The notes beneath the pieces were generated by a model. That model did not search any database. It saw nothing but the letters and a program-made list of their open reading frames with translations, and was not told the DNA's origin. From Eledone cirrhosa (Eukaryota), in contig OZ024766.1 in NCBI GenBank assembly GCA_964016885.1, positions 2,232,001 to 2,296,000 on the forward strand: a DNA stretch of 64,000 nt, given 5' to 3'. The translations under genes and the position numbers were made by a program. This document shows, in pieces, positions 23,976 to 51,700 of this stretch (its first letter is position 1; each line of letters starts with the position of its first letter).

Positions 23976-24106
23976 TTAAAAAAAAATTTGATAAGGGCTG
24001 AAAAGTAATTTATATAAATATCAAATTTGTTTTGTGTTATTTATTATATAAGAACTTCTTGTGTGTGTGTGTGTGAAGGTGTATAATTGGTGTATATATA
24101 TATATA

Positions 24107-24506
24107 GTGGAGGCACATGGCTTAGTGGTTAGAGCATTGGGCTTGCAATCGAAAGGTTGTGAGTTCAATTCTCAGACCGGGTGATGTGTTGTTTCTTTGA
24201 GCAAGACACTTTATTTCACATTGCTCCAGTTTACTCAGCTGTAGAAATGAGATGATAGGGACTGGGGTCCCTATCACTCCACTGCAAAGTGGTCGTGGAG
24301 GTGCCACGGCAAAAGAGCACCCAGCACTCACTGTAAATGAGGTTGGTGTTAGGAAGGGCATCCAGCTGTAGAGATCAAGCCAGAATCAGTTCCCGTATGA
24401 GCAAGACAAAGTCAGCCGACCGGACACTGCTCACAACAGGACAACCTGTCTAACCCATGCTAGCGCGGAAGAACGGGCGTAAAACGATGATGATGATGCT
24501 GATGAT
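24107..24506 (+). mobile_element. Full-length tRNA/CORE-type SINE with an alternative 3' end and (GAT)n
   Basis: gtggaggcacatggcttagtggttagagc...gagttcaattc...ttgagcaagacacttta...; ends ctaacccatgctagcgcggaagaacgggcgtaaaacgatgatg. Confidence 0.88.
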
Positions 24507-24977
24507 AGTGTATAATTAGAAATTAGTGTCATGCATAGCTGTATAAACACTGTATTTCTTTAGAAATACAAAATTTCTATACATATCTGTATAGAACTAT
24601 GCTCAAAGCTAAATCCTAATTCTATTCTATTATAATTTGAGTCAACTTATGCAGCTTCATATGCAAATGAGATTAATCAGCTCATTTACAGACGAGAAAA
24701 CCATATATTCTCGACTTTTTTCAAGTCCAGCAGTTGCAAAAGTCCTGATGAGTAGCAGTGAAGTTCAAAATGCATCGACGATTGTCCCCCTTGCTTCTGC
24801 TGGGCACCACCAGAGGGCATTAGCCCTGGTGTTTTGCATATCTACAGCTTTCTAAATGTTTATCAATAAACACATTCTGTTTCTGTAGACATACGAAATT
24901 ACAATACATATCTGTATACAGCTATGCATAGAACTAATTCCTAATTCTATTATATATCATCATTATCATTTTACATC

Positions 24978-25170
24978 AGGGCGGTGGATTGGCAGTATCG
25001 GTAGAGAGTCGGACGCCATGCTTTCCAGCATAGTTACGTCCCTTTACGGTCTGAGTTCAAATCCCGCCGAGGTTAACTTTGCCTTTCATCCTTACGGGGT
25101 CGATAAAATAAAGTACCAGTAATACACTGGGTAATTGCTGGCCTTGTGCCTAAAGTAGAAACAATTATCA
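24978..25170 (+). mobile_element. Second tRNA-derived SINE family
   Basis: ggcggtggattggcagtatcggtag (A-box-like), gagttcaaatcc (B box), tail aaagtaccagt...ggccttgtgcctaaagtagaaac. Partial copies at 2614-2850 and 26745-26868. Confidence 0.75.
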
Positions 25171-26505
25171 TTTTACATCCGCTTTTCCCTGCTTGCAAGG
25201 GTGGGACGGGTCCTATTCAGCACAGCGTCTCTCCACTTGTCACTGTCCTTCGTCATCTCCTCTGTGAGCTTCAGCAATCTGAGATCAGCTCTCACCACCT
25301 CCGCCCATGTCTTTCGTGATCCTCCTCTACTACGTCTTCTTCCTTCTGGGATTTTTTGCACTTCTTTACCCATCGGCCATCCTCCATACACATCTCAGTC
25401 TCCTCTCCCACACACCACAACATCCCTCTTATACTCAGTTTCTCTCTCAACACATCACATGTCCATACCATCTCAGTCTTCTCTCCCACACACCACAACT
25501 TATACCTCTTACACCCAGTTTCTCTCTCAACACATCACATGTCCATACCATCTCAGTCCTCTCTCCCACACACTACAACTTATACCTCTTATACCCAGTT
25601 TCTCTCTCAACACATCACTTGTCCATACCATCTCAGTCTTCTCTCCCACACACCACAACTTATCCCTCTTATACCCAGTTTCTTTCTCAACACATCACAT
25701 GTCCATACCACCTCAGTCTTCTCTCCTGCACACTACAACTTATCCCTCTTATACCCAGTTTCTCTCTCAACACATCACATGTCCATACCATCTCAGTCTT
25801 CTCTCCCACACACTACAACTTATCCCTCTTATACACAGTTTCTCTCTCAACACATCACATGTCCATACCATCTCAGTCTTCTCTCCCACACACTACAACT
25901 TATCCCTCTTATACCCAGTTTCTCTCTCGCCACATCACATGTCCATACCATCTCAGTCTTCTCTCCCCCACACTACAGTTTATTCCTCTTATACACAGTT
26001 TCTCTCTCAACTCATCCATGCTTGGTCGTTCACGCACATTGACATTGCACATCCAACGGAGCATGCTTGCTTCATTTCTCTCCAGCCGTCGCATATCCTC
26101 CACAGTTGCTGCCCATGTCTCACTACCGTGCAGCATCACGCATCTCATACAGGCATCATATAACAAGCCTTTCGTTCGTAGGGAGAAACCCTTCTTTGTC
26201 AACAGAGGAAGCAACTCCCTAAACTTCTTCCAACCCGTCCTTATTCTAGATACTATGGCCTCAGAACACCCTCCTTCCATAGCACCCACCTGCATTTGAA
26301 AAATGTGTCTATGAATGCGACTTCTACTGTCAAATTTGCCTGTACATCTACTGCATGCATTGTTTTTCCTACCTGTTGGTTTGCCTGCTATCCCACTACA
26401 CCTCTTGGGTGTGTCTTGTCACCTAACACTTGTCAAACTCTATCACCCATTGTCTTTCCTTTGAACATATATATTGTGTGGATATACTCTATGTATTGAG
26501 TACCT
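25170..26505 (-). mobile_element. RTE-clade LINE 3' fragment with an internal 80-bp tandem expansion
   Basis: ORF 25909-26295 (RIRTGWKKFRELLPLL...MLHGSETW...MLRWMC...LRWYGHVM) and 25173-25391 ([18 protein letters not shown]...W); 3' tail shared with the SINE. Confidence 0.9.
25390..26015 (-). repeat. 80-bp minisatellite, about 8 copies, inverted relative to 20599-21478
   Basis: Unit cacatcacatgtccataccatctcagtcttctctcccacacaccacaacttatccctcttatacccagtttctctctcaa. Confidence 0.95.
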
Positions 26506-26744
26506 TACTGTGGTTGCCTCCAAATGAACCTGGGATACCACACACACACATATACACACACATATATACACACACACATATAAATATATATATATATATT
26601 TTTTTTTATTAAGGTAAATATAATGCTTTCTTTATTAACCACAAGGGTTTACATAAAGTAGACATTAAGGACAGTACAGGACGGTACAAATGGGCATTTC
26701 TGCGTGTAAAAAAAAAACAGAGGATGTAATAAAAAATAACAATA

Positions 26745-26868
26745 ATGGTTTCTTATTTCAGCACAAGGCCGGTAATTTGGGGGGAGGGGGGAAAGTCGAT
26801 TAAATTGACCCCAGTGCGTGACAGGTACTTTATTTTATTGACCCCATAAGGATGAAAGGCAAAGTTAA
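26745..26868 (-). mobile_element. 3' fragment of the second SINE family
   Basis: gcacaaggcc...ggtactttattttattgaccccataaggatgaaaggcaaagttaa is the reverse complement of ~25073-25150. Confidence 0.7.
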
Positions 26869-27162
26869 TAAGAATTTTTAACGAGAACTGGCACAAAATT
26901 CACCAACCAACCAAATTACTTTTTTTCCATATAAAACAGAAGTAACATTCACACACCAACAAGATGGGAGAAAAACCACAGACCCTCCATCTCAACTCTA
27001 CTTTTGAAAAGCAGAAGAACTGCGAAACCAGCAAAGGAGCCAAATAAATATAATTTCTTTAAAAAAAGACTCAAGTTGCATTTTTGATTTCATCTTTTTT
27101 CCTTATACTTTCACTTGTGTAGGACACCTCGGTTTCATTTTCATTTTGTAAAAAAACCTCAC

Positions 27163-27621
<459 letters not shown>

Positions 27622-27724
27622 TATATATATATCATTGTCATCATTATGGTCCCTTAACCGTTTTCAGGGTCCTTGGGACACTGCAGTGTTGAACGCTACA
27701 CCAGCACCCTGCCACTCTGGCACT

Positions 27725-30700
27725 CATAAATGACTCTTAAATGGCTAAAACGCCATCATAAATGAATAACATGACTCTTAAATGGCTATTTTAGAGTCAT
27801 TTTAGTCATTTATGATGCAGTTTTAGCCATTTTAGAGTCATTTTTGTCAATTATGATGTCGTTATAGCCATTTTAGTAATTTATGATGCCATTTCAGAGT
27901 CAATTTAGCTATTTTAGAGTCATTTATGATGCTGTTTTAACCATTTTAGAGTCATTTTCGTCATTTATGATGCTGTTTAAGCCATTTCAGAGTAATTTTA
28001 GTCATTTATGATGCCGTTTTAGCCATTTTAGAGTCATTTTAGTCATTTATGATGCCGTTTTAGCCATTTCAGAGTCAATTTAGCCATTTTAGAGTCATTT
28101 TATTCATTTATGATAACGTTTTAACCATTTTAGAGTCACCTTAGTCATTTATGACGCCGTTTAAGCCATTTTGGAGTCATTTTAGTCATTTATGATGCCG
28201 TTTTAGCTATTTTAGTCATTTATGATGCCGTTTTAGCTATTTTAGTTTCATTTTCTTCATTTATGATGCCGTTTTAGCCATTTTAGTCATTTATGATGAC
28301 GTTGAAGTCATTTATGATGCCTTTATAGCCATTTTACTCATTTATGATGCCGTTTTAGCCATTTTACTCATTTATGATGCCTTTTTAGCCATTTTACTCA
28401 TTTATGATGCTATTTTAGCCATATTAGAGTCATTTACGATGCCGTTTTAGCCATTTTAGAGTAATTTTACTCATTTATGATGTCATTTTAATCATTTATG
28501 ATGACGTTTTGGCCATTTTAGTCATTTATGATGCCATTTTAGTCATTTATGATGACGTTTTAGTCATTTATGATGACGTTTTGTCCATTTTACTCATTCA
28601 TGATGCCGTCTTAGACATTTTAGAGTCAATTTAGCCATTTATGATGTCGTTTTAGCCATTTTAGTCATTAATAATGACGTTTTAGTAATTTATGATGACG
28701 TTTTAGCCATTTTACTAATTTATGCCATTTTAGATACAATTTAGCCATTTATGATGCCATTTTAGTCATTTCTGATGCCATTTTAACCTTTTAGAGTCAT
28801 TTTAGTCATTTATGATGACGTTTTTATCAATTATGATGACGTTTTAGTCATTTAGGATGACGTTTTAGCCATTTTACTTATTTATGATGCCTTTTTAGCC
28901 ATTTTACTCATTTATGATGCTATTTTAGTCATTTATGATGACGTTTTAGTCATTTATGATGAGGTTTTGGCCATTTTACTCATTTATGATGCCGTTTTAG
29001 CCATATTAGCCCATTTATGATACCGTTTTCGTCATTTATGATGCCGTTTTAGTAATTTATGATGACGTTTTAGTCATTTATGATGACGTTCTAGCCATTT
29101 TACTCATTTATGATGCCTTTATAGCCATTTTAGAGTCATTTTAGTAATTTGTAATGCCGTTTTAGTCATTTATAATGACCTTTTAGCTATTTTAGAGTAA
29201 TTTGAGTCATTTAAGATGCATTTTTAACCATTTTGGACTCATTTTAGTCATTTATGATGCGTTTTAGCCATTTTGGAGTCATTCTAGTCATATATGATGC
29301 CGTTTTAGACATTTTGGAGTCATTCTAGTCATTTATGATGCCGTTTGAGCCACTTTAGTCATTTATAATAACGTTTTAGCCATTTTAGAGTCATTTTAGT
29401 CATTTATGATGCCGTTCTAGCAATTCCCGAGTCATTCTAGTCATTTATGATGCCGTTTTAGCCATTTTAGTCATTTATAATTACGTTTTAGCTATTTAAG
29501 AGTCATTTCAGTCATTTATGATGCCCTTTTAGCCATTTTAGTCATTCCTAATGACGTTTTAGCTATTTTAGAGTCATTTCAGTCATTTATGATGCCGTTT
29601 TAGCCACTTTAGTCATATATAATGACGTTTTAGCCATTTTAGAGTCATTTTAGTCATTTATGATGCCGTTCTAGCCATTCTGGTGTCATTCTAGTCATTT
29701 ATGATGCCGTTTTAGCCATTTTAGTCATTTATAATGACGTTTTAGCTATTTAAGAGTCATTTTAGTCATTTATGATGCTGTTTTAGCCATTTTAGTATTG
29801 ATAATGCCGTTTTAGCCATTTTACAGTCATTTTAGTCATTTATGATGTTATTTTAGCCATTCTAGACACATTTTAGTCATTTATGATGCCGTTTTACCTA
29901 TTTTACTCATTTATAATGACGTTTTAGCCACTTTAGAGTCATTTTAGTCATTTATGATGCGTTTTAGCCATTTTGGAGTCATTCTAGTCATTTATGATGC
30001 CGTTTTAGCCATGTTAGTCATTCCTAATGATGTTTTAGGTATTTAAGAGTTATTTCAGTCATTTATGATGTATTTTAGCCATTTTAGTCATTTAAGATGC
30101 CGTTTTAACCATTTTGGAGTCATTTTAGTCATTTATGATGCCGTTTTAGCCATTTTCGAATCATTCTAGTCATTTATAATGCCGTTTTAGCCATTTTAGT
30201 CATTTATAATGACGTTTTAGCTATTTAAGAGTCATTTTAGTCATTTATGATGCCGTTTTAGCCATTTTAGTATTGATAATGCCGTTTTAGCCATTTTACA
30301 GTCATTTTAGTCATTTATGATGTTATTTTAGCCATTCTAGACACATTTTAGTCATTTATAATGCCGTTTTACCTATTTTACTGATTTATAATGACGTTTT
30401 AGCCACTTTAGAGTCATTTTAGTCATTTATGATGCGTTTTAGACATTTTGGAGTCATTCTAGTCATTTATGATGCCGTTTGAGCCATTTTAGTCATTTAT
30501 AATGACGTTTTAGCTATTTAAGAGTCATTTTGGTCATTTATGAAGCCGTTTTAGCAATTTTAGTCATTCATAATGACGTTTTAGATATTTTGGAGTCATT
30601 CTAGTCATTTATGATGCCGGTTTAGCCATTTTGGAGTCATTCTAGTCATTTATGATGCCGTTTTAGCCATTTTAGTCATTCCTAATGATGTTTTACCAAT

Positions 30701-33700
30701 TTTAGAGTCATTTGAGTCATTTAAGATTCATTTTTAACCATTTTGGAGTCATTTTAGGCATTTATGATGCGTTTTAGCCATTTTAATCATTAATAATGCC
30801 GTTTTAGCCATTTTAGAGTCACTTTAGTCATTTATGATGCTATTTTAGCCATTCTAGACACATTTTAGTCATTCATAATGCCGTTTCACCCATTTTAGTC
30901 ATTTAAGATGCCGTTTTAACCATTTTGGAGTGATTTTAGTTATATATGATGCCGTTTTAGACATTTTGGAGTCATTCTAGTCATTTATGATGCCGTTTTA
31001 GCCATTTTAGTCATTCCTAATGACGTTTTAGCTATTTTAGAGTCATTTGAGTCATTTAAGATGCATTTTTAACCATTTTGGAGTCATTTTAGTCATTTAT
31101 GATGCGTTTTAGCCATTTTGGAGTCATTCTAGTCATTCATGATGCCGTTTTAGCCATTTTAGTCATTGATAATGCCATTTTAGCTATTTTAGAGTCATTT
31201 TAGTCATTTATGATGCTATTTAAGCCATTCTAGGCACATTTTAGTCATTCATAATGCCGTTTTACCCATTTCAGTCATTTAAGATGCCGTTTTAACCATT
31301 TTGGAGTCATTTTAGTCATATATGATGCCGTTTTAGACATTTTGGAGTCATTCTAGTCATTTATGATGCCGTTTGAGCCATTTTAGTCATTTATAATGAC
31401 GTTTTAGCTATTTAAGAGTCATTTCAGTCATTTATGATGCCCTTTTAGCCATTTTAGTCATTGACAATGCCGTTTTAGCCATTTTAGAGTCATTTTAGTC
31501 ATTTATGATGCTATTTTAGCCATTCTAGACACATTTTAGTCATTCATAATGCCATCTTACTCATTTTAGTCATTTAAGATGCCGTTTTAACCATTTTGGA
31601 GTCATTTTAGTCATATATGATGTCGTTTTAGACATTTTGGAGTCATTCTAGTCATTTATGATGCCGTTTGAACCATTTTAGTCATTTATGATGTCGTTTT
31701 AGCAATTTTAGTCATTTATAATGACGTTTTAGATATTTTGGAGTCATTCTAGTCATTTATGATCCCGTTTTAGCAATTTTGGAGTAATTTCAGTCATTTA
31801 TGATGCCGTTTTAGCCATTTTAGTCATTTATAATGACGCTTTAGCTATTTAAGAGTAATTTTAGTCATTTATGATGCCGTTTTAGCCATTTTAGTCATTT
31901 ATGATGGCGGTTTAGCCATTTGGGAGTGATTCTAGTCATTTATGATGCCGTTTTAGCCATTTTAGTCATTCTTAATGATGTTTTACCTATTTTAGAGTCA
32001 TTTGAGTCATTTAAGATGCATTTTTAACCATTTTGGAGTCATTTTAGTCATTTATGATGCGTTTTAGCCATTTTGGAGTCATTCTAGTCATTTATGATGC
32101 CGTTTTAGCCATTTTAGTCATTGATAATGCCATTTTAGCTATTTTAGACTCATTTTAGTCATTTATGATGCCGGTTTAGCCATTTTGGAGTAATTTCAGT
32201 CATTCATAATGCCGTTTTACCCATTTTAGTCATTTAAGATGCCGTTTTAACCATTTTGGAGTCATTTTAGTTATATATGATGCTGTTTTAGACATTTTGG
32301 AGTCATTCTAGTCATTTATGATCCCGTTTTAGCCATTTTGGAGTAATTTGAGTCATTTATGATGCCGTTTTAGCCATTTTAGTCATTTATAATGACTCTT
32401 TAGACATTTTAGAATCATTTTAGTTATTTATGATGCCGGTTTAGCCATTTTGGAGTCATTCTAGTCATTCATGATGCCGTTTTAGCCATTTTAGTCATTC
32501 CTAATGACGTTTTATCTATTTTAGAGTCATTTGAGGCATTTAAGATGCATTTTTAACCATTTTGGAGTCATTTTAGTCATTTATAATGACGCTTTAGCTA
32601 TTTAGGAGTCATTTTAGTCATTTATGATGCGTTTTAGCTATTTTGGAGTCATTCTAGTCATTTATGATGCCGTTTTAGCCATTTTAGTCATTGATAATGC
32701 CATTTTAGCTATTTTAGAGTCATTTTAGTCATTTATTATGCTATTTTAGCCATTCTAGACAATTTCAGTCATTCATAATGCCGTTTTACCCATTTCAGTC
32801 ATTTAGTTGCCGTTTTAACTATTTTGGAGTCATTTTAGTCATATTTTACCCATTTCAGTCATTTAGTTGCCGTTTTAACTATTTTGGAGTCATTTTAGTC
32901 ATATATGATGCCGTTTTAGACATTTTGGAGTCATTCTAGTCATTTATGATGCCGTTTTAGCAATTTTAGTCATTTATAATGACGTTTTAGATATTTTGGA
33001 GTCATTCTAGTCATTTATGATCCCGTTTGAGCCATTTTGGAGTAATTTCAGTCATTTATGATGCCGTTTTAGCCATTTTAGTCATTTATAATGACGCTTT
33101 AGCTATTTAAGAGTCATTCTAGTCATTTAGGATGCCGGTTTAGCCATTTTGGAGTCATTCTAGTCATTTATGATGCCGTTTTAGCCATTTCAGTCATTCC
33201 TAATGATGTTTTACCTATTTTAGAGTCATTTGAGTCATTTAAGATTCATTTTTAACCATTTTGGAGTCATTTTAGTCATTTATGATGCGTTTTAGCCATT
33301 TTGGAGTCATTTTAGTTATTTATGATGCTATTTTAGCCATTCTAGACACATTTTAGTCATTCTTAATGCCTTTTCACCCATTTTAGTCATTTAAGATGCC
33401 GTTTTAAACCATTTTAGAGTCATTTTAGTTATATATGATGCCGTTTTAGACATTTTGGAGTCATTCTAGTCATTTATGATGCCGTTTGAGCCATTTTAGT
33501 CATTTATAATGACGTTTTTACCTATTTAAGAGTCATTTTAGTCATTTATGATGCTGTTTTAGCCATTTTGGAGTAATTTCAGTCATTTATGATGCCGTTT
33601 TAGCCATTTTAGTCATTTATAATGACGTTTTAGACATTCTAGAATCATTTTAGTCCTTTATGATGCCGGTTTAGCCATTTTGGAGTCATTCTAGTCATTT

Positions 33701-36700
33701 ATGATGCCGTTTTAGCCATTTTAGTCATTCCTAATGACGTTTTAGCTATATTAGAGTCATTTGAGTCATTTAAGATGCATTTCTAACCATTTTTGGAGTC
33801 ATTTTAGTCATTTATGATGCCTTTTAGCCATTTTGGAGTCATTCTAGTCATTTATGATGCCGTTTTAGCCATTTTAGTCATTGATAATGCCATTTTAGCT
33901 ATTTTAGACTCATTTTAGTCATTTATGATGCTATTTTAGCCATTCTAGGCACATTTTAGTCATTCATAATGCCGTTTTACACATTTCAGTCATTTAAGAT
34001 GCCGTTTTAAACCATTTTGGAGTCATTTTAGTCATATATTATGCCGTTTTAGACATTTTGGAGTCATTCTAGTCATTTATGATGCCGTTTGAGCCATTTT
34101 AGTCATTTATAATGACGTTTTAGCTATTTAAGAGTCATTTTACTCATTTATGATGCCGTTTTAAACAATTTTAGTCATTTATAATGACGTTTTAGATATT
34201 TTGGAGTCATTCTAGTCATTTATGATCCCGTTTTAGCCATTTTGGAGTGATTTCAGTCATTTATGATGCCGTTTTAGCCATTTTAGTCATTTATAATGAC
34301 GCTTTAGCTATTTAAGAGTCATTTTAGTCATTTATGATGCCGTTTTAGCCATTTTAGTCATTTATAATGACGCTTTAGCTATTTTAGAGTCATTTTAGTC
34401 ATTTATGATGCCGGTTTAGCCATTTTGGAGTCATTCTAGTCATTTATGATGCCGTTTTAGCCATTTTAGTCATTTATAATGACGTTTTATCCATTTTGGA
34501 GTCATTCTAGTCATTTATAATGCCGTTTTAGCCATTTTAGTCATTCCTACTGACGTTTTAGCTATTTTAGAGTCATTTGAGTCATTTAAGATGCATTTTT
34601 AAACATTTTGGAGTCATTTTAGTCATTTATGATGCGTTTTAGCCATTTTGGAGTCATTCTAGTCAATTATGATGCCGTATTAGCCATTTTAGTCATTGAT
34701 AATGCCGTTTTAGCCATTTTAGAGTCATTTTAGTCATTTATGATGCTATTTTAGCCATTCTAGACACATTTTAGTCATTCATAATGCCGTTTTACCCATT
34801 TTAGTCATTCAAGATGCCGTTTTAACCATTTTGGAGTAATTTTAGTCATATATGATGCCGTTTTAGACATTTTGGAGTCATTCTAGTCATTTATGATACC
34901 GTTTTAGCCATTTTAGTCATTGATAATGCCGTTTTAGCCATTTTAGAGTCATTTTAGTCATTTATGATGCTATTTTAGCCATTCTAGACACATTTTAGTC
35001 ATTCATAATGCCGTTTTACCCATTTTAGTCATTTAAGATGCCGTTTTAACCATTTGGAGTCATTTTAGTCATATATGATGCTGTTTGAGCCATTTTAGTC
35101 ATTTATAACGACGTTTTAGATATTTTGGAGTCATTCTAGTCATTTATGATCCCGTTTGAGCCATTTTGGAGTAATTTCAGTCATTTATGATGCCGTTTTA
35201 GCCATTTTAGTCATTTATAATGACGCTTTAGCTATTTAAGTGTCATTTTAGTCATTTATGATGCCGTTTTAGCCATTTTAGTCATTTATAATGACGCTTT
35301 AGCTATTTAAGAGTCATTTTAGTCATTTATGATGCCGGTTTAGCCATTTTGGAGTCATTCTAGTCATTTATGATGCTGTTTTAGCCATTTTAGTCATTCC
35401 TAATGACGTTTTAGCTATATTAGAGTCATTTGAGTCATTTAAGATGCATTTTTAACCATTTTGGAGTCATTTTAGTCATATATGATGCCGTTTTAGACAT
35501 TTTGGAGTCATTCTAGTCATTTATTATGCCGTTTGAGCCATTTTAGTCATTTATAATGACGTTTTAGCTATTTAAGAGTCATTTCAGTCATTTATGATGC
35601 CCTTTTAGCCATTTTAGTCATTGATAATGCCGTTTTAGCCATTTTAGAGTCATTGTAGTCATTTCTGATGCTATTTTAGCCATTCTAGACACATTTTAGT
35701 CATTCATAATGCCTTTTCACCCATTTTAGTCATTCAAGATGCCGTTTTAACCATTTTAGAGTCATTTTAGTTATATATGATGCCGTTTTAGACATTTTGG
35801 AGTCATTCTAGTCATTTATGATGCCGTTTGAGCCATTTTAGTCATTTATAATGACGTTTTACCTATTTAAGAGTCATTTTAGTCATTTATGATGCCGTTT
35901 TAGCCATTTTGGAGTCATTTCAGTCATTTATGATGCCGTTTTAGCCATTTTAGTCATTTATAATGACGTTTTAGACATTCTAGAATCACTTTAGTCCTTT
36001 ATGATGCCGGTTTAGCCATTTTGGAGTCATTCTAGTCATTTATGATGCCGTTTTAGCCATTTTAGTCATTCCTAATGACGTTTTAGCTATATTAGAGTCA
36101 TTTGAGTCATTTAAGATGCATTTCTAACCATTTTTGGAGTCATTTTAGTCATTTATGATGCCTTTTAGCCATTTTGGAGTCATTCTAGTCATTTATGATG
36201 CCGTTTTAGCCATTTTAGTCATTGATAATGCCATTTTAGCTATTTTAGACTCATTTTAGTCATTTATGATGCTATTTTAGCCATTCTAGACACATTTTAG
36301 TCATTCATAATGCCGTTTTACACATTTCAGTCATTTAAGATGCCGTTTTAACCATTTTGGAGTCATTTTAGTCATATATTATGCCGTTTTAGACATTTTG
36401 GAGTCATTCTAGTCATTTATGATGCCGTTTGAGCCATTTTAGTCATTTATAATGACGTTTTAGCTATTTAAGAGTCATTTTACTCATTTATGATGCCGTT
36501 TTAACAATTTTAGTCATTTATAATGACGTTTTAGATATTTTGGAGTCATTCTAGTCATTTATGATCCCGTTTTAGCCATTTTGGAGTGATTTCAGTCATT
36601 TATGATGCCGTTTTAGCCATTTTAGTCATTTATAATGACGCTTTAGCTATTTAAGAGTCATTTTAGTCATTTATGATGCCGTTTTAGCCATTTTAGTCAT

Positions 36701-39700
36701 TTATAATGACGCTTTAGCTATTTTAGAGTCATTTTAGTCATTTATGATGCCGGTTTAGCCATTTTGGAGTCATTCTAGTCATTTATGATGCCGTTTTAGC
36801 CATTTTAGTCATTTATAATGACGTTTTATCCATTTTGGAGTCATTCTAGTCATTTATAATGCCGTTTTAGCCATTTTAGTCATTCCTACTGACGTTTTAG
36901 CTATTTTAGAGTCATTTGAGTCATTTAAGATGCATTTTTAAACATTTTGGAGTCATTTTAGTCATTTATGATGCGTTTTAGCCATTTTGGAGTCATTCTA
37001 GTCAATTATGATGCCGTATTAGCCATTTTAGTCATTGATAATGCCGTTTTAGCCATTTTAGAGTCATTTTAGTCATTTATGATGCTATTTTAGCCATTCT
37101 AGACACATTTTAGTCATTCATAATGCCGTTTTACCCATTTTAGTCATTCAAGATGCCGTTTTAACCATTTTGGAGTAATTTTAGTCATATATGATGCCGT
37201 TTTAGACATTTTGGAGTCATTCTAGTCATTTATGATACCGTTTTAGCCATTTTAGTCATTGATAATGCCGTTTTAGCCATTTTAGAGTCATTTTAGTCAT
37301 TTATGATGCTATTTTAGCCATTCTAGACACATTTTAGTCATTCATAATGCCGTTTTACCCATTTTAGTCATTTAAGATGCCGTTTTAACCATTTGGAGTC
37401 ATTTTAGTCATATATGATGCTGTTTGAGCCATTTTAGTCATTTATAACGACGTTTTAGATATTTTGGAGTCATTCTAGTCATTTATGATCCCGTTTGAGC
37501 CATTTTGGAGTAATTTCAGTCATTTATGATGCCGTTTTAGCCATTTTAGTCATTTATAATGACGCTTTAGCTATTTAAGTGTCATTTTAGTCATTTATGA
37601 TGCCGTTTTAGCCATTTTAGTCATTTATAATGACGCTTTAGCTATTTAAGAGTCATTTTAGTCATTTATGATGCCGGTTTAGCCATTTTGGAGTCATTCT
37701 AGTCATTTATGATGCTGTTTTAGCCATTTTAGTCATTCCTAATGACGTTTTAGCTATATTAGAGTCATTTGAGTCATTTAAGATGCATTTTTAACCATTT
37801 TGGAGTCATTTTAGTCATATATGATGCCGTTTTAGACATTTTGGAGTCATTCTAGTCATTTATTATGCCGTTTGAGCCATTTTAGTCATTTATAATGACG
37901 TTTTAGCTATTTAAGAGTCATTTCAGTCATTTATGATGCCCTTTTAGCCATTTTAGTCATTGATAATGCCGTTTTAGCCATTTTAGAGTCATTTTAGTCA
38001 TTTATGATGCTATTTTAGCCATTCTAGACACATTTTACTCATTCATAATGCCGTTGTACCCATTTTAGTCATTTAAGATGCTGGTTTAACCATTTTGGAG
38101 TCATTTTAGTTATATATGATGCCGTTTTAGACATTTTGGAGTCATTCTAGCCATTTATGATGCCGTTTGAGCCATTTTAGTCATTTATAATGATGTTTTA
38201 GCTATTTAAGAGTCATTTTAGTCATTTATGATGCCGTTTTAGCAATTTCAGTCATTTATAATGACGTTTTAGATATTTTGGAGTCATTCTAGTCATTTAT
38301 GATCCCGTTTTAGCCATTTTGGAGTGATTTCAGTCATTTATGATGCCGTTTTAGCCATTTTAGTCATTTATAATGACGCTTTAGCTATTTAAGAGTCATT
38401 TTAGTCATTTATGATGCCGTTTTAGCAATTTTAGTCATTTATAATGACGTTTTAGACATTTTAGAGTCATTTTAGTCATTTATGATGCTGGTTTAGCCAT
38501 TTTGGAGTCATTCTAGTCATTTATGATGCCGTTTTAGCCATTTTAGTCATTTATAATGACGTTTTATCCATTTTGAAGTCATTTTAGTCATTTATGATGC
38601 CGGTTTAGCCATTTTGGAGTCATTCTAGTCATTTATGATGCCGTTTTAGCCATTTTAGTCATTCCTAATGACGTTTTAGCTATATTAGAGTCATTTGAGT
38701 CATTTAAGATGCATTTTTAACCATTTTGGAGTCATTTTAGTCATTTATGATGCCTTTTAGCCATTTTGGAGTCATTCTAGTCATTTATGATGCCGTTTTA
38801 GCCATTTTAGTAATTGATAATGCCATTTTAGCTATTTTAGAGTCATTTTAGTCGTTTATGATGCTATTTTAGCCATTCTAGACAATTTCAGTCATTCATA
38901 ATGCCGTTTTACCCATTTCAGTCATTTAAGATGCCGTTTTAACTATTTTGGAGTCATTCTAGTCATATATGATGCCGTTTTAGACATTTTGGAGTCATTC
39001 TAGTCATTTATGATGCCGTTTTAGCAATTTTAGTCATTTATAATGCCGTTTTAGATATTTTGGAGTCATTCTAGTCATTTATGATCCCGTTTGAGCCATT
39101 TTGGAGTAATTTCAGTCATTTATGATGCCGTTTTAGCCATTTTAGTCATTTATAATGACGCTTTAGCTATTTAAGAGTCATTTTAGTCATTTATGATGCC
39201 GTTTTAGCCATTTTAGTCATTTATAATGACGCTTTAGCTATTTAAGAGTCATTTTAGTCATTTATGATGCCGGTTTAGCCATTTTGGAGTCATTCTAGTC
39301 ATTTATGATGCCGTTTTAGCCATTTCAGTCATTCCTAATGATGTCTTACCTATTTTAGAGTCATTTGAGTCATTTAAGATTCATTTTTAACCATTTTGGA
39401 GTCATTTTAGTCATTTATGATGCGTTTTAGCCATTTTGGAGTCATTTTAGTCATTTATGATGCTATTTTAGCCATTCTAGACACATTTTAGTCATTCATA
39501 ATGCCGTTTCACCCATTTTAGTCATTTAAGATGCCGTTTTAACCATTTTAGAGTCATTTTAGTTATATATGATGCCGTTTTAGACATTTTGGAGTCATTC
39601 TAGTCATTTATGATGCCGTTTGAGCCATTTTAGTCATTTATAATGACGTTTTACCTATTTAAGAGTCATTTTAGTCATTTATGATGCCGTTTTAGCAATT

Positions 39701-42700
39701 TTAGTCATTTATAATGACGTTTTAGATATTTTGGAGTCATTCTAGTCATTTATGATCTATCGATCCCCGTTTTAGCCATTTTGGAGTAATTTCAGTCATT
39801 TATGATGCCGTTTTAGCCATTTTAGTTATTTATAATGACGTTTTAGACATTCTAGAATCATTTTAGTCATTTATGATGCCGGATTAGCCATTTTGGAGTC
39901 ATTCTAGTCATTTATGATGCCGTTTTAGCCATTTTAGTCATTGATAATGCCGTTTTAGCCATTTTAGAGTCATTTTAGTCATTTTCGATGCTATTTTAGC
40001 CATTCTAGACACATTTTAGCCATTCATAATGCCGTTTTACCCATTTTAGTCATTTAAGATGCCGTTTTAACCATTTGGAGTCATTTTAGTCATATATGAT
40101 GCTGTTTGAGCCATTTTAGTCATTTATAACGACGTTTTAGATATTTTGGAGTCATTCTAGTCATTTATGATCCCGTTTGAGCCATTTTGGAGTAATTTCA
40201 GTCATTTATGATGCCGTTTTAGCCATTTTAGTCATTTATAATGACGCTTAGGCTATTTAAGTGTCATTTTAGTCATTTATGATGCCGTTTTAGCCATTTT
40301 AGTCATTTATAATGACGCTTTAGCTATTTAAGAGTCATTTTAGTCATTTATGATGCCGGTTTAGCCATTTTAGTCATTCCTAATGACGTTTTAGCTATAT
40401 TAGAGTCATTTGAGTCATTTAAGATGCATTTTTAACCATTTTGGAGTCATTTTAGTCATATATGATGCCGTTTTAGACATTTTGGAGTCATTTTAGTCAT
40501 TTATGATGCTATTTTAGCCATTCTAGACACATTTTACTCATTCATAATGCCGTTGTACCCATTTTAGTCATTTAAGATGCTGGTTTAACCATTTTGGAGT
40601 CATTTTAGTTATATATGATGCCGTTTTAGACATTTTGGAGTCATTCTAGCCATTTATGATGCCGTTTGAGCCATTTTAGTCATTTATAATGATGTTTTAG
40701 CTATTTAAGAGTCATTTTAGTCATTTATGATGCCGTTTTAGCAATTTCAGTCATTTATAATGACGTTTTAGATATTTTGGAGTCATTCTAGTCATTTATG
40801 ATCCCGTTTTAGCCATTTTGGAGTGATTTCAGTCATTTATGATGCCGTTTTAGCCATTTTAGTCATTTATAATGACGCTTTAGCTATTTAAGAGTCATTT
40901 TAGTCATTTATGATGCCGTTTTAGCCATTTTAGTCATTTATAATGACGTTTTAGACATTTTAGAGTCATTTTAGTCATTTATGATGCTGGTTTAGCCATT
41001 TTGGAGTCATTCTAGTCATTTATGATGCCGTTTTAGCCATTTTAGTCATTTATAATGACGTTTTATCCATTTTGGAGTCATTTTAGTCATTTATGATGCC
41101 GGTTTAGCCATTTTGGAGTCATTCTAGTCATTTATGATGCCGTTTTAGCCATTTTAGTCATTTCTAATGACGTTTTAGCTATATTAGAGTCATTTGAGTC
41201 ATTTAAGATGCATTTTTAACCATTTTGGAGTCATTTTAGTCATTTATGATGCCTTTTAGCCATTTTGGAGTCATTCTAGTCATTTATGATGCCGTTTTAG
41301 CCATTTTAGTAATTGATAATGCCATTTTAGCTATTTTAGAGTCATTTTAGTCGTTTATGATGCTATTTTAGCCATTCTAGACAATTTCAGTCATTCATAA
41401 TGCCGTTTTACCCATTTCAGTCATTTAAGATGCCGTTTTAACTATTTTGGAGTCATTCTAGTCATATATGATGCCGTTTTAGACATTTTGGAGTAATTCT
41501 AGTCATTTATGATGCCGTTTTAGCAATTTTAGTCATTTATAATGCCGTTTTAGATATTTTGGAGTCATTCTAGTCATTTATGATCCCGTTTGAGCCATTT
41601 TGGAGTAATTTCAGTCATTTATGATGCCGTTTTAGCCATTTTAGTCATTTATAATGACGCTTTAGCTATTTAAGAGTCATTTTAGTCATTTATGATGCCG
41701 TTTTAGCCATTTTAGTCATTTATAATGACGCTTTAGCTATTTAAGAGTCATTTTAGTCATTTATGATGCCGGTTTAGCCATTTTGGAGTCATTCTAGTCA
41801 TTTATGATGCCGTTTTAGCCATTTCAGTCATTCCTAATGATGTCTTACCTATTTTAGAGTCATTTGAGTCATTTAAGATTCATTTTTAACCATTTTAGAG
41901 TCATTTTAGTTATATATGATGCCGTTTTAGACATTTTGGAGTCATTCTAGTCATTTATGATGCCGTTTGAGCCATTTTAGTCATTTATAATGACGTTTTA
42001 CCTATTTAAGAGTCATTTTAGTCATTTATGATGCCGTTTTAGCAATTTTAGTCATTTATAATGACGTTTTAGATATTTTGGAGTCATTCTAGTCATTTAT
42101 GATCCCGTTTTAGCCATTTTGGAGTAATTTCAGTCATTTATGATGCCGTTTTAGCCATTTTAGTTATTTATAATGACGTTTTAGACATTCTAGAATCATT
42201 TTAGTCATTTATGATGCCGGATTAGCCATTTTGGAGTCATTTATAATGACGCTTAGGCTATTTAAGTGTCATTTTAGTCATTTATGATGCCGTTTTAGCC
42301 ATTTTAGTCATTTATAATGACGCTTTAGCTATTTAAGAGTCATTTTAGTCATTTATGATGCCGTTTTAGCCATTTTAGTCATTGATAATGCCGTTTTAGC
42401 CATTTTAGAGTCATTTTAGTCATTTTCGATGCTATTTTAGCCATTCTAGACACATTTTAGCCATTCATAATGCCGTTTTACCCATTTTAGTCATTTAAGA
42501 TGCCGTTTTAAACCATGTTGGAGTCATTTTAGTCATTTATGATGCTGTACGAGCCATTTTAGTCATTTATAACGACGTTTTAGATATTTTGGAGTCATTC
42601 TAGTCATTTATGATCCCGTTTGAGCCATTTTGGAGTAATTTCAGTCATTTATGATGCCGTTTTAGCCATTTTAGTCATTTATAATGACGCTTTAGCTATT

Positions 42701-45700
42701 TAAGTGTCATTTTAGTCATTTATGATGCCGTTTTAGCCATTTTCGTCATTTATAATGACGCTTTAGCTATTTAAGAGTCATTTTAGTCATTTATGATGCC
42801 GGTTTAGCCATTTTGGAGTCATTCTAGTCATTTATGATGCCGTTTTAGCCATTTTAGTCATTCCTAATGACGTTTTAGCTATCTTAGAGTCATTTGAGTC
42901 ATTTAAGATGCATTTTTAACCATTTTGGAGTCATTTTAGTCATATATGATGCCGTTTTAGAGATTTTGGAGTCATTCTAGTCATTTATGATGCCGTTTGA
43001 GCCATTTTAGTCATTTATAATGACGTTTTAGCTATTTAAGAGTCATTTCAGTCATTTATGATGCACTTTTAGCCATTTTAGTCATTGATAATGCCGTTTT
43101 AGCCATTTTATAGTCATTTTAGTCATTTATGATGCTATTTTAGCCATTCTAGACACATTTTAGTCATTCATAATGCCGTTTTACCCATTTTAGTCATTTA
43201 AGATTCTGGTTTAACCATTTTGGAGTCATTTTAGTTATATATGATGCCGTTTTAGACATTTTGGAGTCATTCTAGCCATTTATGACGCAGTTTGAGCCAT
43301 TTTAGTCATTCATAATGACGTTTTAGCTATTTAAGAGTCATTTTAGTCATTTATCATGCCGTTTTAGCAATTTTAGTCATTTATAATGACGTTTTAGATA
43401 TTTTGGAGTCATTCTAGTCATTTATGATCCCGTTTTAGCCATTTTGGAGTGATTTCAGTCATTTATGATGCCGTTTTAGCCATTTTAGTCATTTATAATG
43501 ACGCTTTAGCTATTTAAGAGTCATTTTAGTCATTTATAATGCCGTTTTAGCCATTTTAGTCATTTATAATGACGTTATAGACATTTTAGAGTCATTTTAG
43601 TCATTTATGATGCCGGTCTAGCCATTTTGGTGTCATTCTAGTCATTTATGATGCCGTTTTAGCCATTTTAGTCATTTATAATGACGTTTTATCCAGTTTG
43701 GAGTCATTCTAGTCATTTATAATGCCGTTTTAGCCATTTTAGTCATTTAAGATGCCGTTTTAACCATTTTGGAGTCATTTTAGTCATTTATGATGCGTTT
43801 TAGCCATTTTGGAGTCATTCTAGTCAATTATGATGCCGTATTAGCCATTTTAGTCATTGATAATGCCGTTTTAGCCATTTTAGAGTCATTTTAGTCATTT
43901 ATGATGCTATTTTAGCCATTCTAGACACATTTTAGTCATTCATAATGTCGTTTTAACCCATTTTAGTCATTCAAGATGCCGTTTTAAACATTTTGGAGTA
44001 ATTTTAGTCATATATGATGCCGTTTTAGACATTTTGGAGTCATTCTAGTCATTTATGATGCCGTTTTAGCCATTTTAGTCATTGATAATGCCGTTTTAGC
44101 CATTTTAGAGTCATTTTAGTCATTTTCGATGCTATTTTAGCCATTCTAGACACATTTTAGTCATTCATAATGCCGTTTTACCCATTTTAGTCATTTAAGA
44201 TGCCGTTTTAACCATTTTGGAGTCATTTTAGTCATATATGATGCTGTTTGAGCCATTTTAGTCATTTATAACGACGTTTTAGATATTTCGGAGTCATTCT
44301 AGTCATTTATGATCCAGTTTGAACCATTTTGGAGTAATTTCAGTCATTTATGATGCCGTTTTAGCCATTTTAGTCCTTTATAATGACGCTTTAGCTATTT
44401 AAGTGTCATTTTAGTCATTTATGATGCCGTTTTAGCCATTTTAGTCATTTATAATGACGCTTTAGCTATTTAAGAGTCATTTTAGTCATTTATCATGCCG
44501 GTTTAGCCATTTTGGAGTCATTCTAGTCATTTATGATGCCGTTTTAGCCATTTTAGTCATTCCTAATGACGTTTTAGCTATTTTAGAGTCATTTGAGTCA
44601 TTTAAGATGCATTTTTAACCATTTTGGAGTCATTTTAGTCATATATGATGCCATTTTAGACATTTTGGAGTCATTCTAGTCATTTATGATGCCGTTTGAG
44701 CCATTTTAGTCATTTATAATGACGTTTTAGCTATTTAAGAGTCATTTCAGTCATTTATGATGCCCTTTTAGCCATTTTAGTCATTGATAATGCCGTTTTA
44801 GCCATTTTAGAGTCATTTTAGTCATTTATGATGCCTTTTAGCCATTTTGGAGTCATTCTAGTCATTTATGATGCCGTTTTAGCCATTTTAGTCATTGATA
44901 ATGCCATTTTACCTATTTTAGAGTCATTTTAGTCATTTATGATGCTATTTTAGCCATTCTAGACACATTTTAGTCATTAATAATGCCGTTTTACCCATTT
45001 TTGTCATTTAAGATGCTGGTTTAACCATTTTGGAGTCATTCTAGTCATTTATGATCCCGTTTTAGCCATTTTGGAGTGATTTCAGTCATTTATGATGCCG
45101 TTTTAGCCATTTTAGTCATTTATAATGACGCTTTAGCTATTTAAGAGTCATTTTAGTCATTTATGATGCCGTTTTAGCAATTTTAGTCATTTATATTGAC
45201 GTTTTAGACATTTTAGAGTCATTTTAGTCATTTATGATGCCGGTTTAGCCATTTTGGAGTTATTCTAGTCATTTATGATGCCGTTTTAGCCATTTTAGTC
45301 ATTTATAATGACGTTTTATCCATTTTGGAGTCATTTTAGTCATTTATGATGCCGGTTTAGCCATTTTGGAGTCATTCTAGTCATTTATGATGCCGTTTTA
45401 GCCATTTTAGTCATTCCTAATGACGTTTTAGCTATATTAGAGTCATTTGAGTCATTTAAGATGCATTTAAAACCATTTTTGGAGTCATTTTAGTCATTTA
45501 TGATGCCTTTTAGCCATTTTGGAGTCATTCTAGTCATTTATGATGCCGTTTTAGCCATTTTAGTCATTGATAATGCCATTTTAGCTATTTTAGAGTCATT
45601 TTAGTCATTTATGATGCTATTTTAGCCATTCTAGACACATTTTAGTCATTCATAATGCCGTTTTACCCATTTTAGTCATTTAAGATGCCGTTTTAAACCA

Positions 45701-48700
45701 TTTTGGAGTCATTTTAGTCATATATGATGCCGTTTTAGCCATTTTGGAGTAATTCCAGTCATTTATGATGCCGTTTTAGCCATTTTAGTCATCTATAATG
45801 ACGCTTTAGCTATTTAAGAGTCATTTTATTCATTTATGATGCAGTTTTAGCCATTTTAGTCATTCTTAATGACGTTTTAGCTATTTTAGAGTCATTTGAG
45901 TAATTTAAGACGCCGTTTTAACCATTTTGGAGTCATTCTAGTCATTTATGATGCCGTTGTAGCTAAAACGTCATTATAAATGACTAAAATGGCTCAAACG
46001 GCATCATAAATGACTAGAATGAATCCAAAATGTCTAAAACGGCATCATATATGACTAAAATGACTCCAAAATGGTTAAAACGGCATCTTAAATGACTAAA
46101 ATGGGTAAAAACGGCATTATGAATGACTAAAATGTGTCTAGAATGGTTAAAATAGCATCATAAATGACTAAAATGACTCTAAAATGGCTAAAACGGCATT
46201 ATCAATGACTAAAATTGCTAAAAGGGCATCATAAATGACTGAAATGACTCTTAAATAGCTAAAACGTCATTATAAATGACTAAAATGGCTCAAACGGCAT
46301 CATAAATGACTAAAATGACTCTAAAATGTCTAAAACGGCATTATCAATGACTAAAATGGCTAAAACGGCATCATAAATGACTGAAATGACTCCAAAATGG
46401 CTAAAACGGGATCATAAATGACTAAAATGACTCTTAAATAGCTAAAACGTCATTATAAATGACTAAAATGGCTCAAACGGCATCATAAATGACTAAAATG
46501 ACTCTAAAATGTCTAAAACGGCATTATCAATGACTAAAATGGCTAAAACGGCATCATAAATGACTGAAATGACTCCAAAATGTCTAAAACGGCATCATAT
46601 ATGACTAAAATGACTCCAAAATGGTTAAAACGGCATCTTAAATTACTAAAATGGGTAACACGGCATTATGAATGACTAAAATGTGTCTAGAATGGCTAAA
46701 ATAGCATCATAAATGACTAAAATGACTCTAAAATGGCTAAAACGGCATTATCAATGACTGAAATGGCTAAAACGGCATCATAAATGACTAGAATGACTCC
46801 AAAATGGCTAAAACGCATCATAAATGACTAAAATGACTCCAAAATGGTTAAAAATGCATCTTAAATGACTCAAATGACTCTAAAATAGCTAAAACGTCAG
46901 TAGGAATGACTAAAATGGCTAAAACGGCATCATGAATGACTAGAATGACTCCAAAATGGATAAAACGTCATTATCAATGACTAAAGTGGCTAAAACGGCA
47001 TCATAAATGACTAGAATGACTCCAAAATGGCTAAACCGGCATCATAAATGACTAAAATGACTCTAAAATGTCTAAAACGTCATTATAAATGACTAAAATG
47101 GCTAAAACGGCATCATAAATGACTGAAATTACTCCAAAATGGCTAAAACGGGATCATAACTAGAATGACTCCAAAATGTCTAAAACGGCATCATATATGA
47201 CTAAAATGACTCCAAAATGGTTAAAACGGCATCTTAAATGACTAAAATGGGTAAAACGGCATTATGAATGACTAAAATGTGTCTATAATGGCTAAAATAG
47301 CATAATAAATGACTAAAATGACTCTAAAATGGCTAAAACGGCATTATCAATGATTAAATGGCTAAAAAGGCATGATAAATGACTAGAATGACGCCAAAAT
47401 GTCTAAAACGCATCATGAATGATTAAAATGACTCCAAAATGGTTAAAAATGAATATTAAATGACTCAAATGACTCTAAAATATGTAAAAACATCAATTAG
47501 GAATGACTAAAATTGCTCAAACGGCATCATAAATGATTAAAATGACTCTTAAATAGCTAAAGCGTCATTATGAATGACTAAAATGGCTAAAACGGCATTA
47601 TAAATGACTAAAATTGCTAAAACGGCATCCTAAATGACTAAAATGACTCTTAAATAGCTTAAACAGCATCATAAATGACGAAAATGACTCTAAAATGGTT
47701 AAAACAGCATCATATATGACTAAAATGACTCCAAAATGGTTAAAACGGCATCTTAAATGACTAAAATGGGTAAATCGGCATTATGAATGACTAAAATGTG
47801 TCTAGAATGGCTAAAATAGCATCATAAATGACTAAAATGGCTAAAACGGCATTATCAATGACTAAAATGGCTAAAACGGCATCAGAAATGACTAGAATGA
47901 CTCCAAAATGGCTAAAACGCATCATAAATGACTAAAATTACTCCAAAATGGTTTAAACGCATCATAAATGACTAAAATGACTCCAAAATGGTTAAAAATG
48001 CATCTTAAATGAATCAAATGACTCTAAAATAGCTAAAACGTCATTAGGAATGACTAAAATGGCTAAAACGGCATCATAAATGACTAGAATGACTCCAAAA
48101 TGGATTAAACGTCATTATAAATGACTAAAATGGCTAAAACGCCATCATAAATGACTGAAATTACTCCAAAATGGCTAAAACGGGATCATAAATGACTGGA
48201 ATGACTCAAAATATCGAACACGGCATCATATATGACTAAAATGACTCCAAAATGGTTAAAACGGCATCTTAAATGACTAAAATGGGTAAAACGGCATTAT
48301 GAATGACTAAAATGTGTCTAGAATGGCTAAAATAGCATCATAAATGACTTAAATGACTCTAAAATAGGCTAAAACGGCATTATCAATGACTAAAATGGCT
48401 AAAAGGGCATCATAAATGACGGAAATGACTCTTAAATAGCTAAAAAGTCATCATAAATGACTAAAATGGCTTAAACGGCATCATAAATGACTAGAATGAC
48501 TCCAAAATGTCTAAAACGGCATCATATATGACTAAAATGACTCCAAAATGGTTAAAACGGCATCTTAAATGACTAAAATGGGTAAAACGGCATTATGAAT
48601 GACTAAAATGTGTCTAGAATGGCTAAAATAGCATCATAAATGACTAAAATGACTTTAAAATGGCTAAAACGGCATTATGAATGACTAAAATGGCTAAAAC

Positions 48701-51700
48701 GGCATCATAAATGACTAGAATGACTCCAAAATGGCTAAAACGCATCATAAATGACTAAAATTACTCCAAAATGGTTAAAACGGCATCTTAAATGACTAAA
48801 ATGGGTAAAACGGCATCATAAATGACTAAAATGTGTCTAGAATGGCTAAAATAGCATCATAAATGACTAAAATAACTTTAAAATGGCTAAAACGGCATTA
48901 TGAATGACTAAAATGGCTTAAAACGGCATCATAAATGACTAGAATGACTCCAAAATGGCTAAAACGCATCAAAATGACTAAAATTACTCCAAAATGGTTA
49001 AAAATGCATCTTAAATGACTCAAATGACTCTAAAATAGGTTAAAACATCAGTAGGAATGACTAAAATTGCTAAAACGGCATCATAAATGACTAGAATGAC
49101 TCTGAAATGGATAAAACGTCATTATAAATGACTAAAATGGCTAAAACGGCATCATAAATGACAGAAACTACTCCAAAATGGCTAAACCGGCATCATAAAT
49201 GACTAAATGACTCTAAAATGTCTAAAACGTTATTATAAATGACTAAAATGGCTAAAACGGCATCATAAATGACTGAAATTACTCCAAAATGGCTAAAACG
49301 GCATCATAAATGACTAAAATGACTCTAAAATGTCTAAAACGTTATTATAAATGACTAAAATTGCTAAAACGGCATCATAAATGACTAAAATGACTCTTAA
49401 ATAGCTAAAACGTCATTATGAATGACTAAAATGGCTCAAACGGCCTCATAAATGACTAGAATGACTCCAAAATGTCTTAAACGGCATCATATATGACTAA
49501 AATGACTCCAAAATGGTTAAAACGGCATCTTAAATTACTAAAATGGGTAACACGGCATTATGAATGACTAAAATGTGTCTAGAATGGCTAAAATAGCATC
49601 ATAAATGACTAAAATGACTCTAAAATGGCTAAAACGGCATTATCAATGACTAAAATGGCTAAAACGGCATCATAAATGACTAGAATGAATCCAAAATGGC
49701 TAAAACGCATCATAAATGACTAAAATGACTCCAAAATGGTTAAAAATGCATCTTAAATGACTCAAATGACTCTAAAATAGCTAAAACGTCATTAGGAATG
49801 ACTAAAATGGCTAAAACGGCATCACAAATGACTAGAATGACTCCAAAATGGATAAAACGTCATTATCAATGACTAAAGAGGCTAAAACGGCATCATAAAT
49901 GACTAGAATGACTCCAAAATGGTTAAACCGGCATCATAAATGACTAAAATGACTCTAAAATGTCTAAAATGTCATTATCAATGACTAAAATAGCTAAAAC
50001 GGCATCATAAATGACTAGAATGACTCCAAAATGGCTAAACCGGCATCATAAATGACTAAAATGACTCTAAATGGCTAAAACGGCATTATGAATGACTAAA
50101 ATGGCTAAAACGGCATCATAAATGACTAGAATGACTCCAAAATGGCTAAAACGCATCATAAATGACTAAAATTACTCCAAAATGGTTAAAACGGCATCTT
50201 AAATGACTAAAATGGGTAAAACGGCATCATAAATGACTAAAATGTGTCTAGAATGGCTAAAATAGCATCATAAATGACTAAAATGACTTTAAAATGGCTA
50301 AAACGGCATTATGAATGACTAAAATGGCTAAAACGGCATCATAAATGACTAGAATGACTCCAAAATGGCTAAAACGCATCAAAATGACTAAAATTACTCC
50401 AAAATGGTTAAAAATGCATCTTAAATGACTCAAATGACTCTAAAATAGGTAAAACATCAGTAGGAATGACTAAAATTGCTAAAACGGCATCATAAATGAC
50501 TAGAATGACTCTGAAATGGATAAAACGTCATTATAAATGACTAAAATGGCTAAAACGGCATCATAAATGACAGAAACTACTCCAAAATGGCTAAACCGGC
50601 ATCATAAATGACTAAAATGACTCTAAAATGTCTAAAACGTTATTATAAATGACTAAAATGGCTAAAACGGCATCATAAATGACTGAAATTACTCCAAAAT
50701 GGCTAAAACGGCATCATAAATGACTAAAATGACTCTAAAATGTCCTAAAACGTTATTATAAATGACTAAAATTGCTAAAACGGCATCATAAATGACTAAA
50801 ATGACTCTTAAATAGCTAAAACGTCATTATGAATGACTAAAATGGCTCAAACGGCCTCATAAATGACTAGAATGACTCCAAAATGTCTTAAACGGCATCA
50901 TATATGACTAAAATGACTCCAAAATGGTTAAAACGGCATCTTAAATTACTAAAATGGGTAACACGGCATTATGAATGACTAAAATGTGTCTAGAATGGCT
51001 AAAATAGCATCATAAATGACTAAAATGACTCTAAAATGGCTAAAAACGGCATTATCAATGACTAAAATGGCTAAAACGGCTTCATAAATGACTAGAATGA
51101 ATCCAAATGGCTAAAACGCATCATAAATGACTAAAATGACTCCAAAATGGTTAAAAATGCATCTGAAATGACTCAAATGACTCTAACATAGCTTAAAACG
51201 TCATTAGGAATGACTAAAATGGCTAAAACGGCATCACAAATGACTAGAATGACTCCAAAATGGATAAAACGTCATTATCAATGACTAAAGAGGCTAAAAC
51301 GGCATCATAAATGACTAGAATGACTCCAAAATGGCTAAACCGGCATCATAAATGACTAAAATGACTCTAAAATGGCTAAAACGGCATTATCAATGACTAA
51401 AATGGCTAAAACGGCATCATAAATGACTAAAATGACTCCAAAATGGCTAAAACCCATCATAAATGACTAAAATTACTCCAAAATGGTTTAAACGCATCAT
51501 GAATGACTAAAATGACTCCAAAATGGTTAAAAATGCATCTTGAATGACTTAAATGACTCTAAAATAGCTAAAACGTCATTAGGAATGACTAAAATGGCTA
51601 AAACGGCATCATAAATGACTAGAATGACTCCAAAATGTCTAAAACGGCATCATATATGACTAAAATGACTCAAAATGGTTTAAAACGGCATCTTAAATGA

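Follow-up and report, generated by a model that had tools for sequence, protein, structure and literature searches.

The window analysed here is a 64,000-bp stretch of the Eledone cirrhosa genome (assembly GCA_964016885.1, contig OZ024766.1, positions 2,232,001 to 2,296,000 of the forward strand; G000:C27:2232001-2296000 in the handles used below), in which an array of a 41-bp satellite is divided into two long arms of opposite orientation. We conclude, at a probability of roughly 0.58, that this array arose through separate strand switches primed by microhomology, followed by growth within each arm and the spread of two-armed seeds, and not through one flip at a special site. A site-specific flip at the six-base motif (hexamer) on which both strand changes of the window are centred, as an earlier note on this DNA had proposed, is not supported. 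Considered alone the locus is an ordinary satellite strand switch, and the weight of the case rests on the genome-wide polarity of such arrays and on a region of contig C18. All counts come from the one 3.0-Gb assembly.

The satellite monomer is composed of units of about 9, 11 and 21 bp, and A runs on one of its strands have a median spacing of 10.5 bases (46050-64000), approximately one helical turn, so that the satellite may be intrinsically bent. Orientation is named after the + strand of the contig, + being A-rich and - T-rich. A scan of the whole window with strand-diagnostic k-mers detected exactly two sustained switches, at 27785/6 and 45962/3, with AT skew passing from about -0.30 to about +0.30 at the latter. 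Both are centred on the hexamer, as previously described, which is a near-palindrome at the left switch (27783-27788, + to -) and a perfect palindrome at the central switch (45960-45965, - to +), and about 4 bases (4-5 at the left switch) are common to both orientations at each. The central position was placed by eye, the automatic caller having scored it as 'near' because of a single substitution at 45958. The sole N gap of the window lies at 21479-21678, and neither switch has one. While the two reported strand changes are real, they are not the only ones, as the array switches a third time at G000:C27:2299570, 3.6 kb beyond the window end and outside the hexamer, in a near-perfect local hairpin whose 50-bp arms differ at 2 positions and enclose a 5-base loop. 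Read past the window, the strand order of the array is +58, -18170, +21609 and -57. These segments correspond to a short diverged stub (27716-27785, start approximate, +), a T-rich left arm of 18,177 bp (27786-45962, -), an A-rich right arm (45963-64000, +, continuing to the third switch for a total of 21.6 kb) and a 57-bp inverted hairpin stub in which the right arm terminates. Each outer end of the array therefore bears a short inverted stub, the flanks are TA-rich, and the expectation of two opposed arms of at least 18 kb is borne out (18.2 and 21.6 kb, no gap).

Strand switches are common in the 41-bp family and show no preference for the hexamer. Other arrays were located by junction patterns, DNA searches and the monomer pattern and then extracted, and the extracted arrays cover 1095 of the 1212 exact copies of one 25-base monomer word. 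An initial 55 junction rows were reduced to 37 by removing 18 amplified copies (14 from the C18 macro-array and 4 from C18:41.88 Mb), and the addition of 17 rows (6 copies removed) and a further 3 rows gave 51 distinct junctions. Only three fall at the hexamer centre, namely the window's two (45962/3 by eye) and C27:2029521. Outside the window's pair this amounts to 1/49, compared with 1.2% by chance in 4000 simulated random joins; likewise 5/51 junctions lie within 4 bases of the hexamer centre, compared with 10.4% of random joins. Consequently, by the refutation test that the earlier note itself had set, the preferred palindromic core is not supported, the switches being scattered over the monomer. 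Nor is the monomer otherwise strand-asymmetric, as had been stated, given that further self-complementary spots exist (e.g. 45942-45951) and some palindromic k-mers occur on both strands. What does characterise the junctions is microhomology: among the 37 junctions that lack inserted bases, 20 overlap by at least 4 bases (null expectation 21.5%, p=1.5e-5), and in 12 of these 20, judged by eye, it uses another self-complementary element, an inverted 4-base pair like that at 45942-45951. No foreign DNA occurs at the inversion points, where the sequences overlap or abut in 37 of 51 junctions and are separated by 1-10 unassigned bases in the other 14. Junction sequences differ from one array to the next, and conserved copies are restricted to one C24 array and the C18 region. 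At G000:C18:41881610-41885865, 12 switches crowd into 4.3 kb, in part through amplification of the same junctions.

Long exact repeats in the window's array are confined within arms, the longest exact match between arms being 158 bp, compared with 1491 and 500 bp inside them, in agreement with the earlier statement that the centre is not a simple mirror fold-back. Duplications inside the left arm measure about 2.34 and 2.50 kb, and the right arm has a different set, of 1.41, 2.55, 3.5 and 7.2 kb. When 23 left-arm pieces, each of 400 bp, were compared with the right arm, their best matches had a median identity of 91.8% and lay at scattered positions, and 30-mer sharing between the two arms was 0.31, compared with 0.10 for the closest other array. 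Private 24-mers reach 0.5-0.8 at both present outer edges and are near 0 over much of a uniform core, a layering based on k-mer sharing for the window's array only. The left arm has a diverged outer zone, in which 28465-29983 (-) aligns collinearly, at 87-89%, with copies of 1.57 kb on contig C4; these copies share 63-83% of the 24-mers of 28201-29200. Since C4 carries copies of it, this zone is long-standing, and the left edge, rightly described as degenerate, does not reflect private decay; the earlier caveat that an old switch was followed by expansion is likewise supported. The C4 copies are three in number and of single orientation (G000:C4:78714752, 78724658 and 78739829), two are identical, and no target duplication was seen at any of them. 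The left stub matches the neighbouring arm end better than it matches 96.5% of 451 windows of that arm, matches the outer end of the right arm equally well or better (91 vs 88), and folds with the adjacent arm as one hairpin (-33.6 vs -5.1 kcal/mol per 100 nt in the control), and is likely to be a fold-back copy of an array end. Across the family, short terminal arms match adjacent sequence in the top 3.5% of windows in 5 of 13 cases.

The arrays share a fixed polarity. Both orientations are present in 27 of 36 array rows; the 9 rows with a single orientation include the three short copies on C4 and 3 rows that stop at a gap or at the start of a contig. Setting aside these 9, together with 8 rows in which one orientation covers less than 2 kb and a single row that merges amplified C18 units, leaves 18 large two-armed arrays, in 17 of which the T-rich (-) arm comes first, i.e. 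in head-to-head order (p=1.4e-4, a value that assumes independent arrays, which is doubtful). The order persists in 14 of 15 arrays when three with a scaffold gap at their centre are removed, and in 9 of 9 arrays found without any junction pattern. For 5 truncated arrays a prediction was recorded beforehand; 3 have the predicted arm, 2 are cut short by a gap or the start of a contig, and none contradicts it. This order is identical when read from either strand, and therefore contig orientation does not explain the polarity. The opposite (+ to -) type of junction mostly carries one short terminal arm.

Two-armed units have themselves been copied in several places. Over about 0.67 Mb of C18 (G000:C18:42694592-43365844, sampled), the 41-bp satellite alternates with an unrelated GC-rich 30-bp satellite; one 41-bp-satellite junction recurs there at 40 positions as slightly diverged copies, and the GC-rich satellite is itself inverted in most units, with a conserved junction. 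The whole unit reverses direction near 42.72 Mb. This region is the closest match to the centromeric layout of Tribolium flour beetles, and is a candidate centromere. One C24 array carries the same junction twice. Additionally, three arrays, the window's not among them, are bordered on both sides by mirrored copies of a 71-bp satellite. At C26:1.82 Mb (G000:C26:1818001-1868000) this satellite is mirrored, as are several kb of non-satellite flank (84-97% identity for the latter), and the locus is an inverted duplication with its centre in the satellite. In two pairs of arrays, judged by eye, rare sequence beside the junction is common to both members, with breakpoints at shifted positions.

From the switch positions, the microhomology excess, the scattered breakpoints, the arm-specific duplications and the fixed polarity we infer a history in four steps. 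First, in the course of replication or break repair, an old switch would have joined two opposed stretches at a few shared bases, creating a small two-armed seed. Its arms would then have grown and been homogenised separately, by tandem duplications that leave the junction uncrossed. Later, or separately, the outer ends may have folded back to form the stubs, the left junction (27785/6) being one such event. Finally, the polarity would most likely derive from genome-wide copying of two-armed seeds, whose centres may have been re-cut by microhomology-mediated deletions; centre deletion is known from palindromes. This last step is the weakest, and we place about even odds on seed copying as opposed to a strand-biased switch mechanism as the cause of the polarity. 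The diverged zones at both present outer ends count in favour of such a history. Several observations weigh against it. For most of the 31 central-type junctions there is almost no sharing of rare 16-mers on the two sides (3 and 3 in the best pair), and common descent of the seeds is consequently thinly supported. Central junctions also lack a mirror signal, the junction-proximal bin being best in 1/28 comparisons at a mean rank of 0.49, so that fold-back at the centre is not shown. Mirrored flanks are absent at the window's array in a search over 45 kb, and 8 of the 13 short terminal arms do not reach the top 3.5% of windows. The array at C27:2.03 Mb, interrupted by a gap, shows the reverse arm order, and strand folding energies show no bias that could explain the polarity (T-rich strand lower in 53/150). 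Moreover, the window's two junctions are exactly reciprocal, which must be taken as chance at about 6% per pair, and the evidence comes from one assembly only.

A potential alternative is that each array acquires its arm order afresh, through selection or through a process that acts directionally on one strand, with junctions arising independently at scattered sites and only those from which the A-rich strand, with its phased A runs, points outward growing two long arms. We consider this possible, though appreciably less probable than the history above; if true, it would mean that satellite growth or chromatin function follows a directional rule, independent of junction sequence. Less likely still is a single conservative inversion, long ago, between the two hexamers, at a site that is not special and in a block that was probably smaller then and later expanded. 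Its attraction is that the exactly reciprocal junctions restore the usual linkage of unit variants. Indeed, as the earlier note had found by hand, ordinary units reappear when the block is re-inverted (7 and 11 of the 11 spanning 12-mers); of 28 pairs of neighbouring junctions, none scores better on re-inversion than the window pair, which shares the top score, and the arms share more 30-mers with each other than with the closest other array. However, clean re-inversion is not commoner for neighbours (2/28) than for pairs from different arrays (16/279). Because the units recombine freely, unrelated pairs can restore equally well, and a clean re-inversion is weak evidence for one flip. The re-inverted ancestor would in addition have had its diverged zone mid-array and its uniform core against the flank, and a single inversion leaves the common arm order of 17/18 arrays and the stub at the other end unexplained.

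Two further explanations that invoke insertion appear improbable, to a similar degree. In one, the arrays are overgrown Foldback-type transposons whose arms are long terminal inverted repeats of tandem subrepeats and whose middle has been deleted at differing points. The fixed polarity, the modular 9/11/21-bp units and the long inverted arms with internal tandem repeats agree with this, as does the mirrored outer 71-bp satellite at three arrays, and such elements are known to seed satellites according to the available portion of PMC4079207. Yet no termini are held in common among 14 arrays inspected, and over 20 arrays the longest direct repeat between the two ends is 5.4 bases on average, compared with 5.7 for mismatched ends; an 8-10-bp target-site duplication was not found in these 20, where decayed ends limit power. 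A conserved outer flanking domain is absent as well, the 71-bp satellite being the only mirrored flank, at three arrays other than the window's. In the other explanation, the A-rich strand, as RNA or single-stranded DNA, served as template for extension of the two ends of a chromosome break, and the copies were joined at microhomology. A model is provided by twin priming in long interspersed nuclear elements (LINEs), which produces an antisense arm followed by a sense arm, a microhomology join and a target-site duplication; its arm order and join fit the arrays if the A-rich strand is the template. Dual-end copying would yield a T-rich arm first in every new insertion, and predicts scattered microhomology breakpoints, non-mirror arms and an outer end of the inverted arm contiguous with the start of the other arm, which corresponds to the restored right-hand join; the A-rich strand further offers an A run for priming every 10.5 bases or so. 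Against this stand the lack of target-site duplications and the mirrored flanks and terminal stubs, which it does not explain. Very improbable is that the junction at 45962 stems from a misjoin in the assembly or from a chimeric read. A scaffold gap coincides with the central switch in three other arrays, and among the listed pieces from public runs, which may belong to another individual or species, no contig bridges the junction. Conversely, a misjoin is made unlikely by the absence of a gap at 45962, by arms that are not mirror copies and by the recurrence of the same layout in many arrays, one junction type being present in 40 slightly diverged copies.

The reads available for this comparison were short-read contigs and restriction-site-associated DNA (RAD) reads, from runs selected with 27300-27900 (best share 0.39); four runs were compared with each junction. 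None of the listed pieces crosses 27785, with a depth of 22-30 at 27699-27719 in two runs of short-read contigs. Over 45910-46015 the longest listed piece is 51 bases, and none of those listed has 31 bases on both sides of 45962; this read set comprises 3 samples at most, with 69 further pieces outside those listed, and an uncovered stretch in it proves nothing. An artefactual mirror chimera was rejected, exact matches between arms being no longer than 158 bp and central junctions lacking a mirror signal. The assembler often breaks at central switches: scaffold gaps or contig ends coincide exactly with such a switch, or with the place expected for one, at G000:C20:36345835, C24:8510239, C18:39756331, C27:1409935, C26:1236213 and C1720:1.

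The surroundings of the array hold other repeats. An 80-bp minisatellite is present in opposite orientations, 4 kb apart, at 20599-21478 and 25383-26020, the first copy adjoining the gap at 21479-21678, and young minisatellite arrays occur at 7024-8924, 9308-9865, 10552-12572, 16236-17466 and 19297-19754, with unit lengths of 48, 139, 65, 72 and 51 bp, respectively, and 93-97% matches. An Rfam scan of 24000-32000 returned only a weak tRNA-like match at 24118-24175 (31.2 bits), perhaps the head of a short interspersed nuclear element (SINE). Directly beyond the array lie a C2H2 zinc-finger coding sequence (479-aa open frame; G000:C27:2303055-2304494, 7 kb past the window) and similar blocks of 84-bp period, which extend to C27:2342000.

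Among known systems, the satellite arrays of Tribolium are the nearest parallel. The portions of PMC13081366 and PMC12581902 available describe macro-dyad symmetries, mostly of two sub-arrays, with a few conserved inversion types, and the former presents such symmetries as documented only in that genus; on the accessible literature, the head-to-head macro-dyad layout has so far been described only in these beetles. Shared with them are uninterrupted arrays of two multi-kb opposed sub-arrays of unequal length with abrupt junctions that lack foreign DNA, the prevalence of the two-armed layout in the family and, on C18 though not at the window's array, the alternation of two unrelated satellites, each inverted and with conserved junctions. 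The arrays described here differ in their 51 distinct and mostly one-off junctions, as opposed to a few conserved types shared between chromosomes, in forming dispersed 10-40-kb blocks instead of multi-Mb centromeric fields, and in their short terminal inverted stubs. Because the layout agrees while the conserved-junction feature fails, we class the array as a variant of the Tribolium macro-dyad. Other systems resemble it in part. The human T2T-CHM13 assembly contains more than 200 inversion breakpoints within HSat3 and beta satellite arrays, and one alpha array has a 1.7-Mb polymorphic inversion (bioRxiv 10.1101/2021.07.12.452052, in the part consulted); within-array strand switches and diverged edges around a uniform core are common to both, whereas that part of the source reports neither a fixed arm order nor a rule of one dyad per array. 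Tetris, a Foldback transposon of Drosophila virilis with flanking domains and 8-10-bp target duplications that can seed satellites (PMC4079207, in part), likewise has opposed arms of tandem subrepeats, yet the arms here reach 10-25 kb and neither a conserved flanking domain nor such a target duplication was found. In yeast, short inverted homology primes strand switches at breaks (PMC10622511, in part), a process that the hairpin stubs fit, although the mirror arms and duplicated flanks it predicts are absent at the array centre. In the accessible parts of the literature on macro-dyads, strand switches and microhomology, cephalopod satellites, foldback elements, head-to-head arrays, palindrome centre deletion and twin priming, we found no description of the present 41-bp family or of a fixed arm order, though the Tribolium supplements may state arm order. 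If the polarity holds, satellite macro-dyads are neither Tribolium-specific nor dependent on conserved junction sequences, and a function of junction loops can be separated from a by-product of array seeding and growth, a distinction that the Tribolium papers could not draw; some 50 natural breakpoints in small, fully assembled arrays render the seeding mechanism testable. Should arm order instead be set anew at each array, the C18 region would show that the two-satellite dyad architecture of Tribolium has arisen a second time, by convergence, in a distantly related animal.

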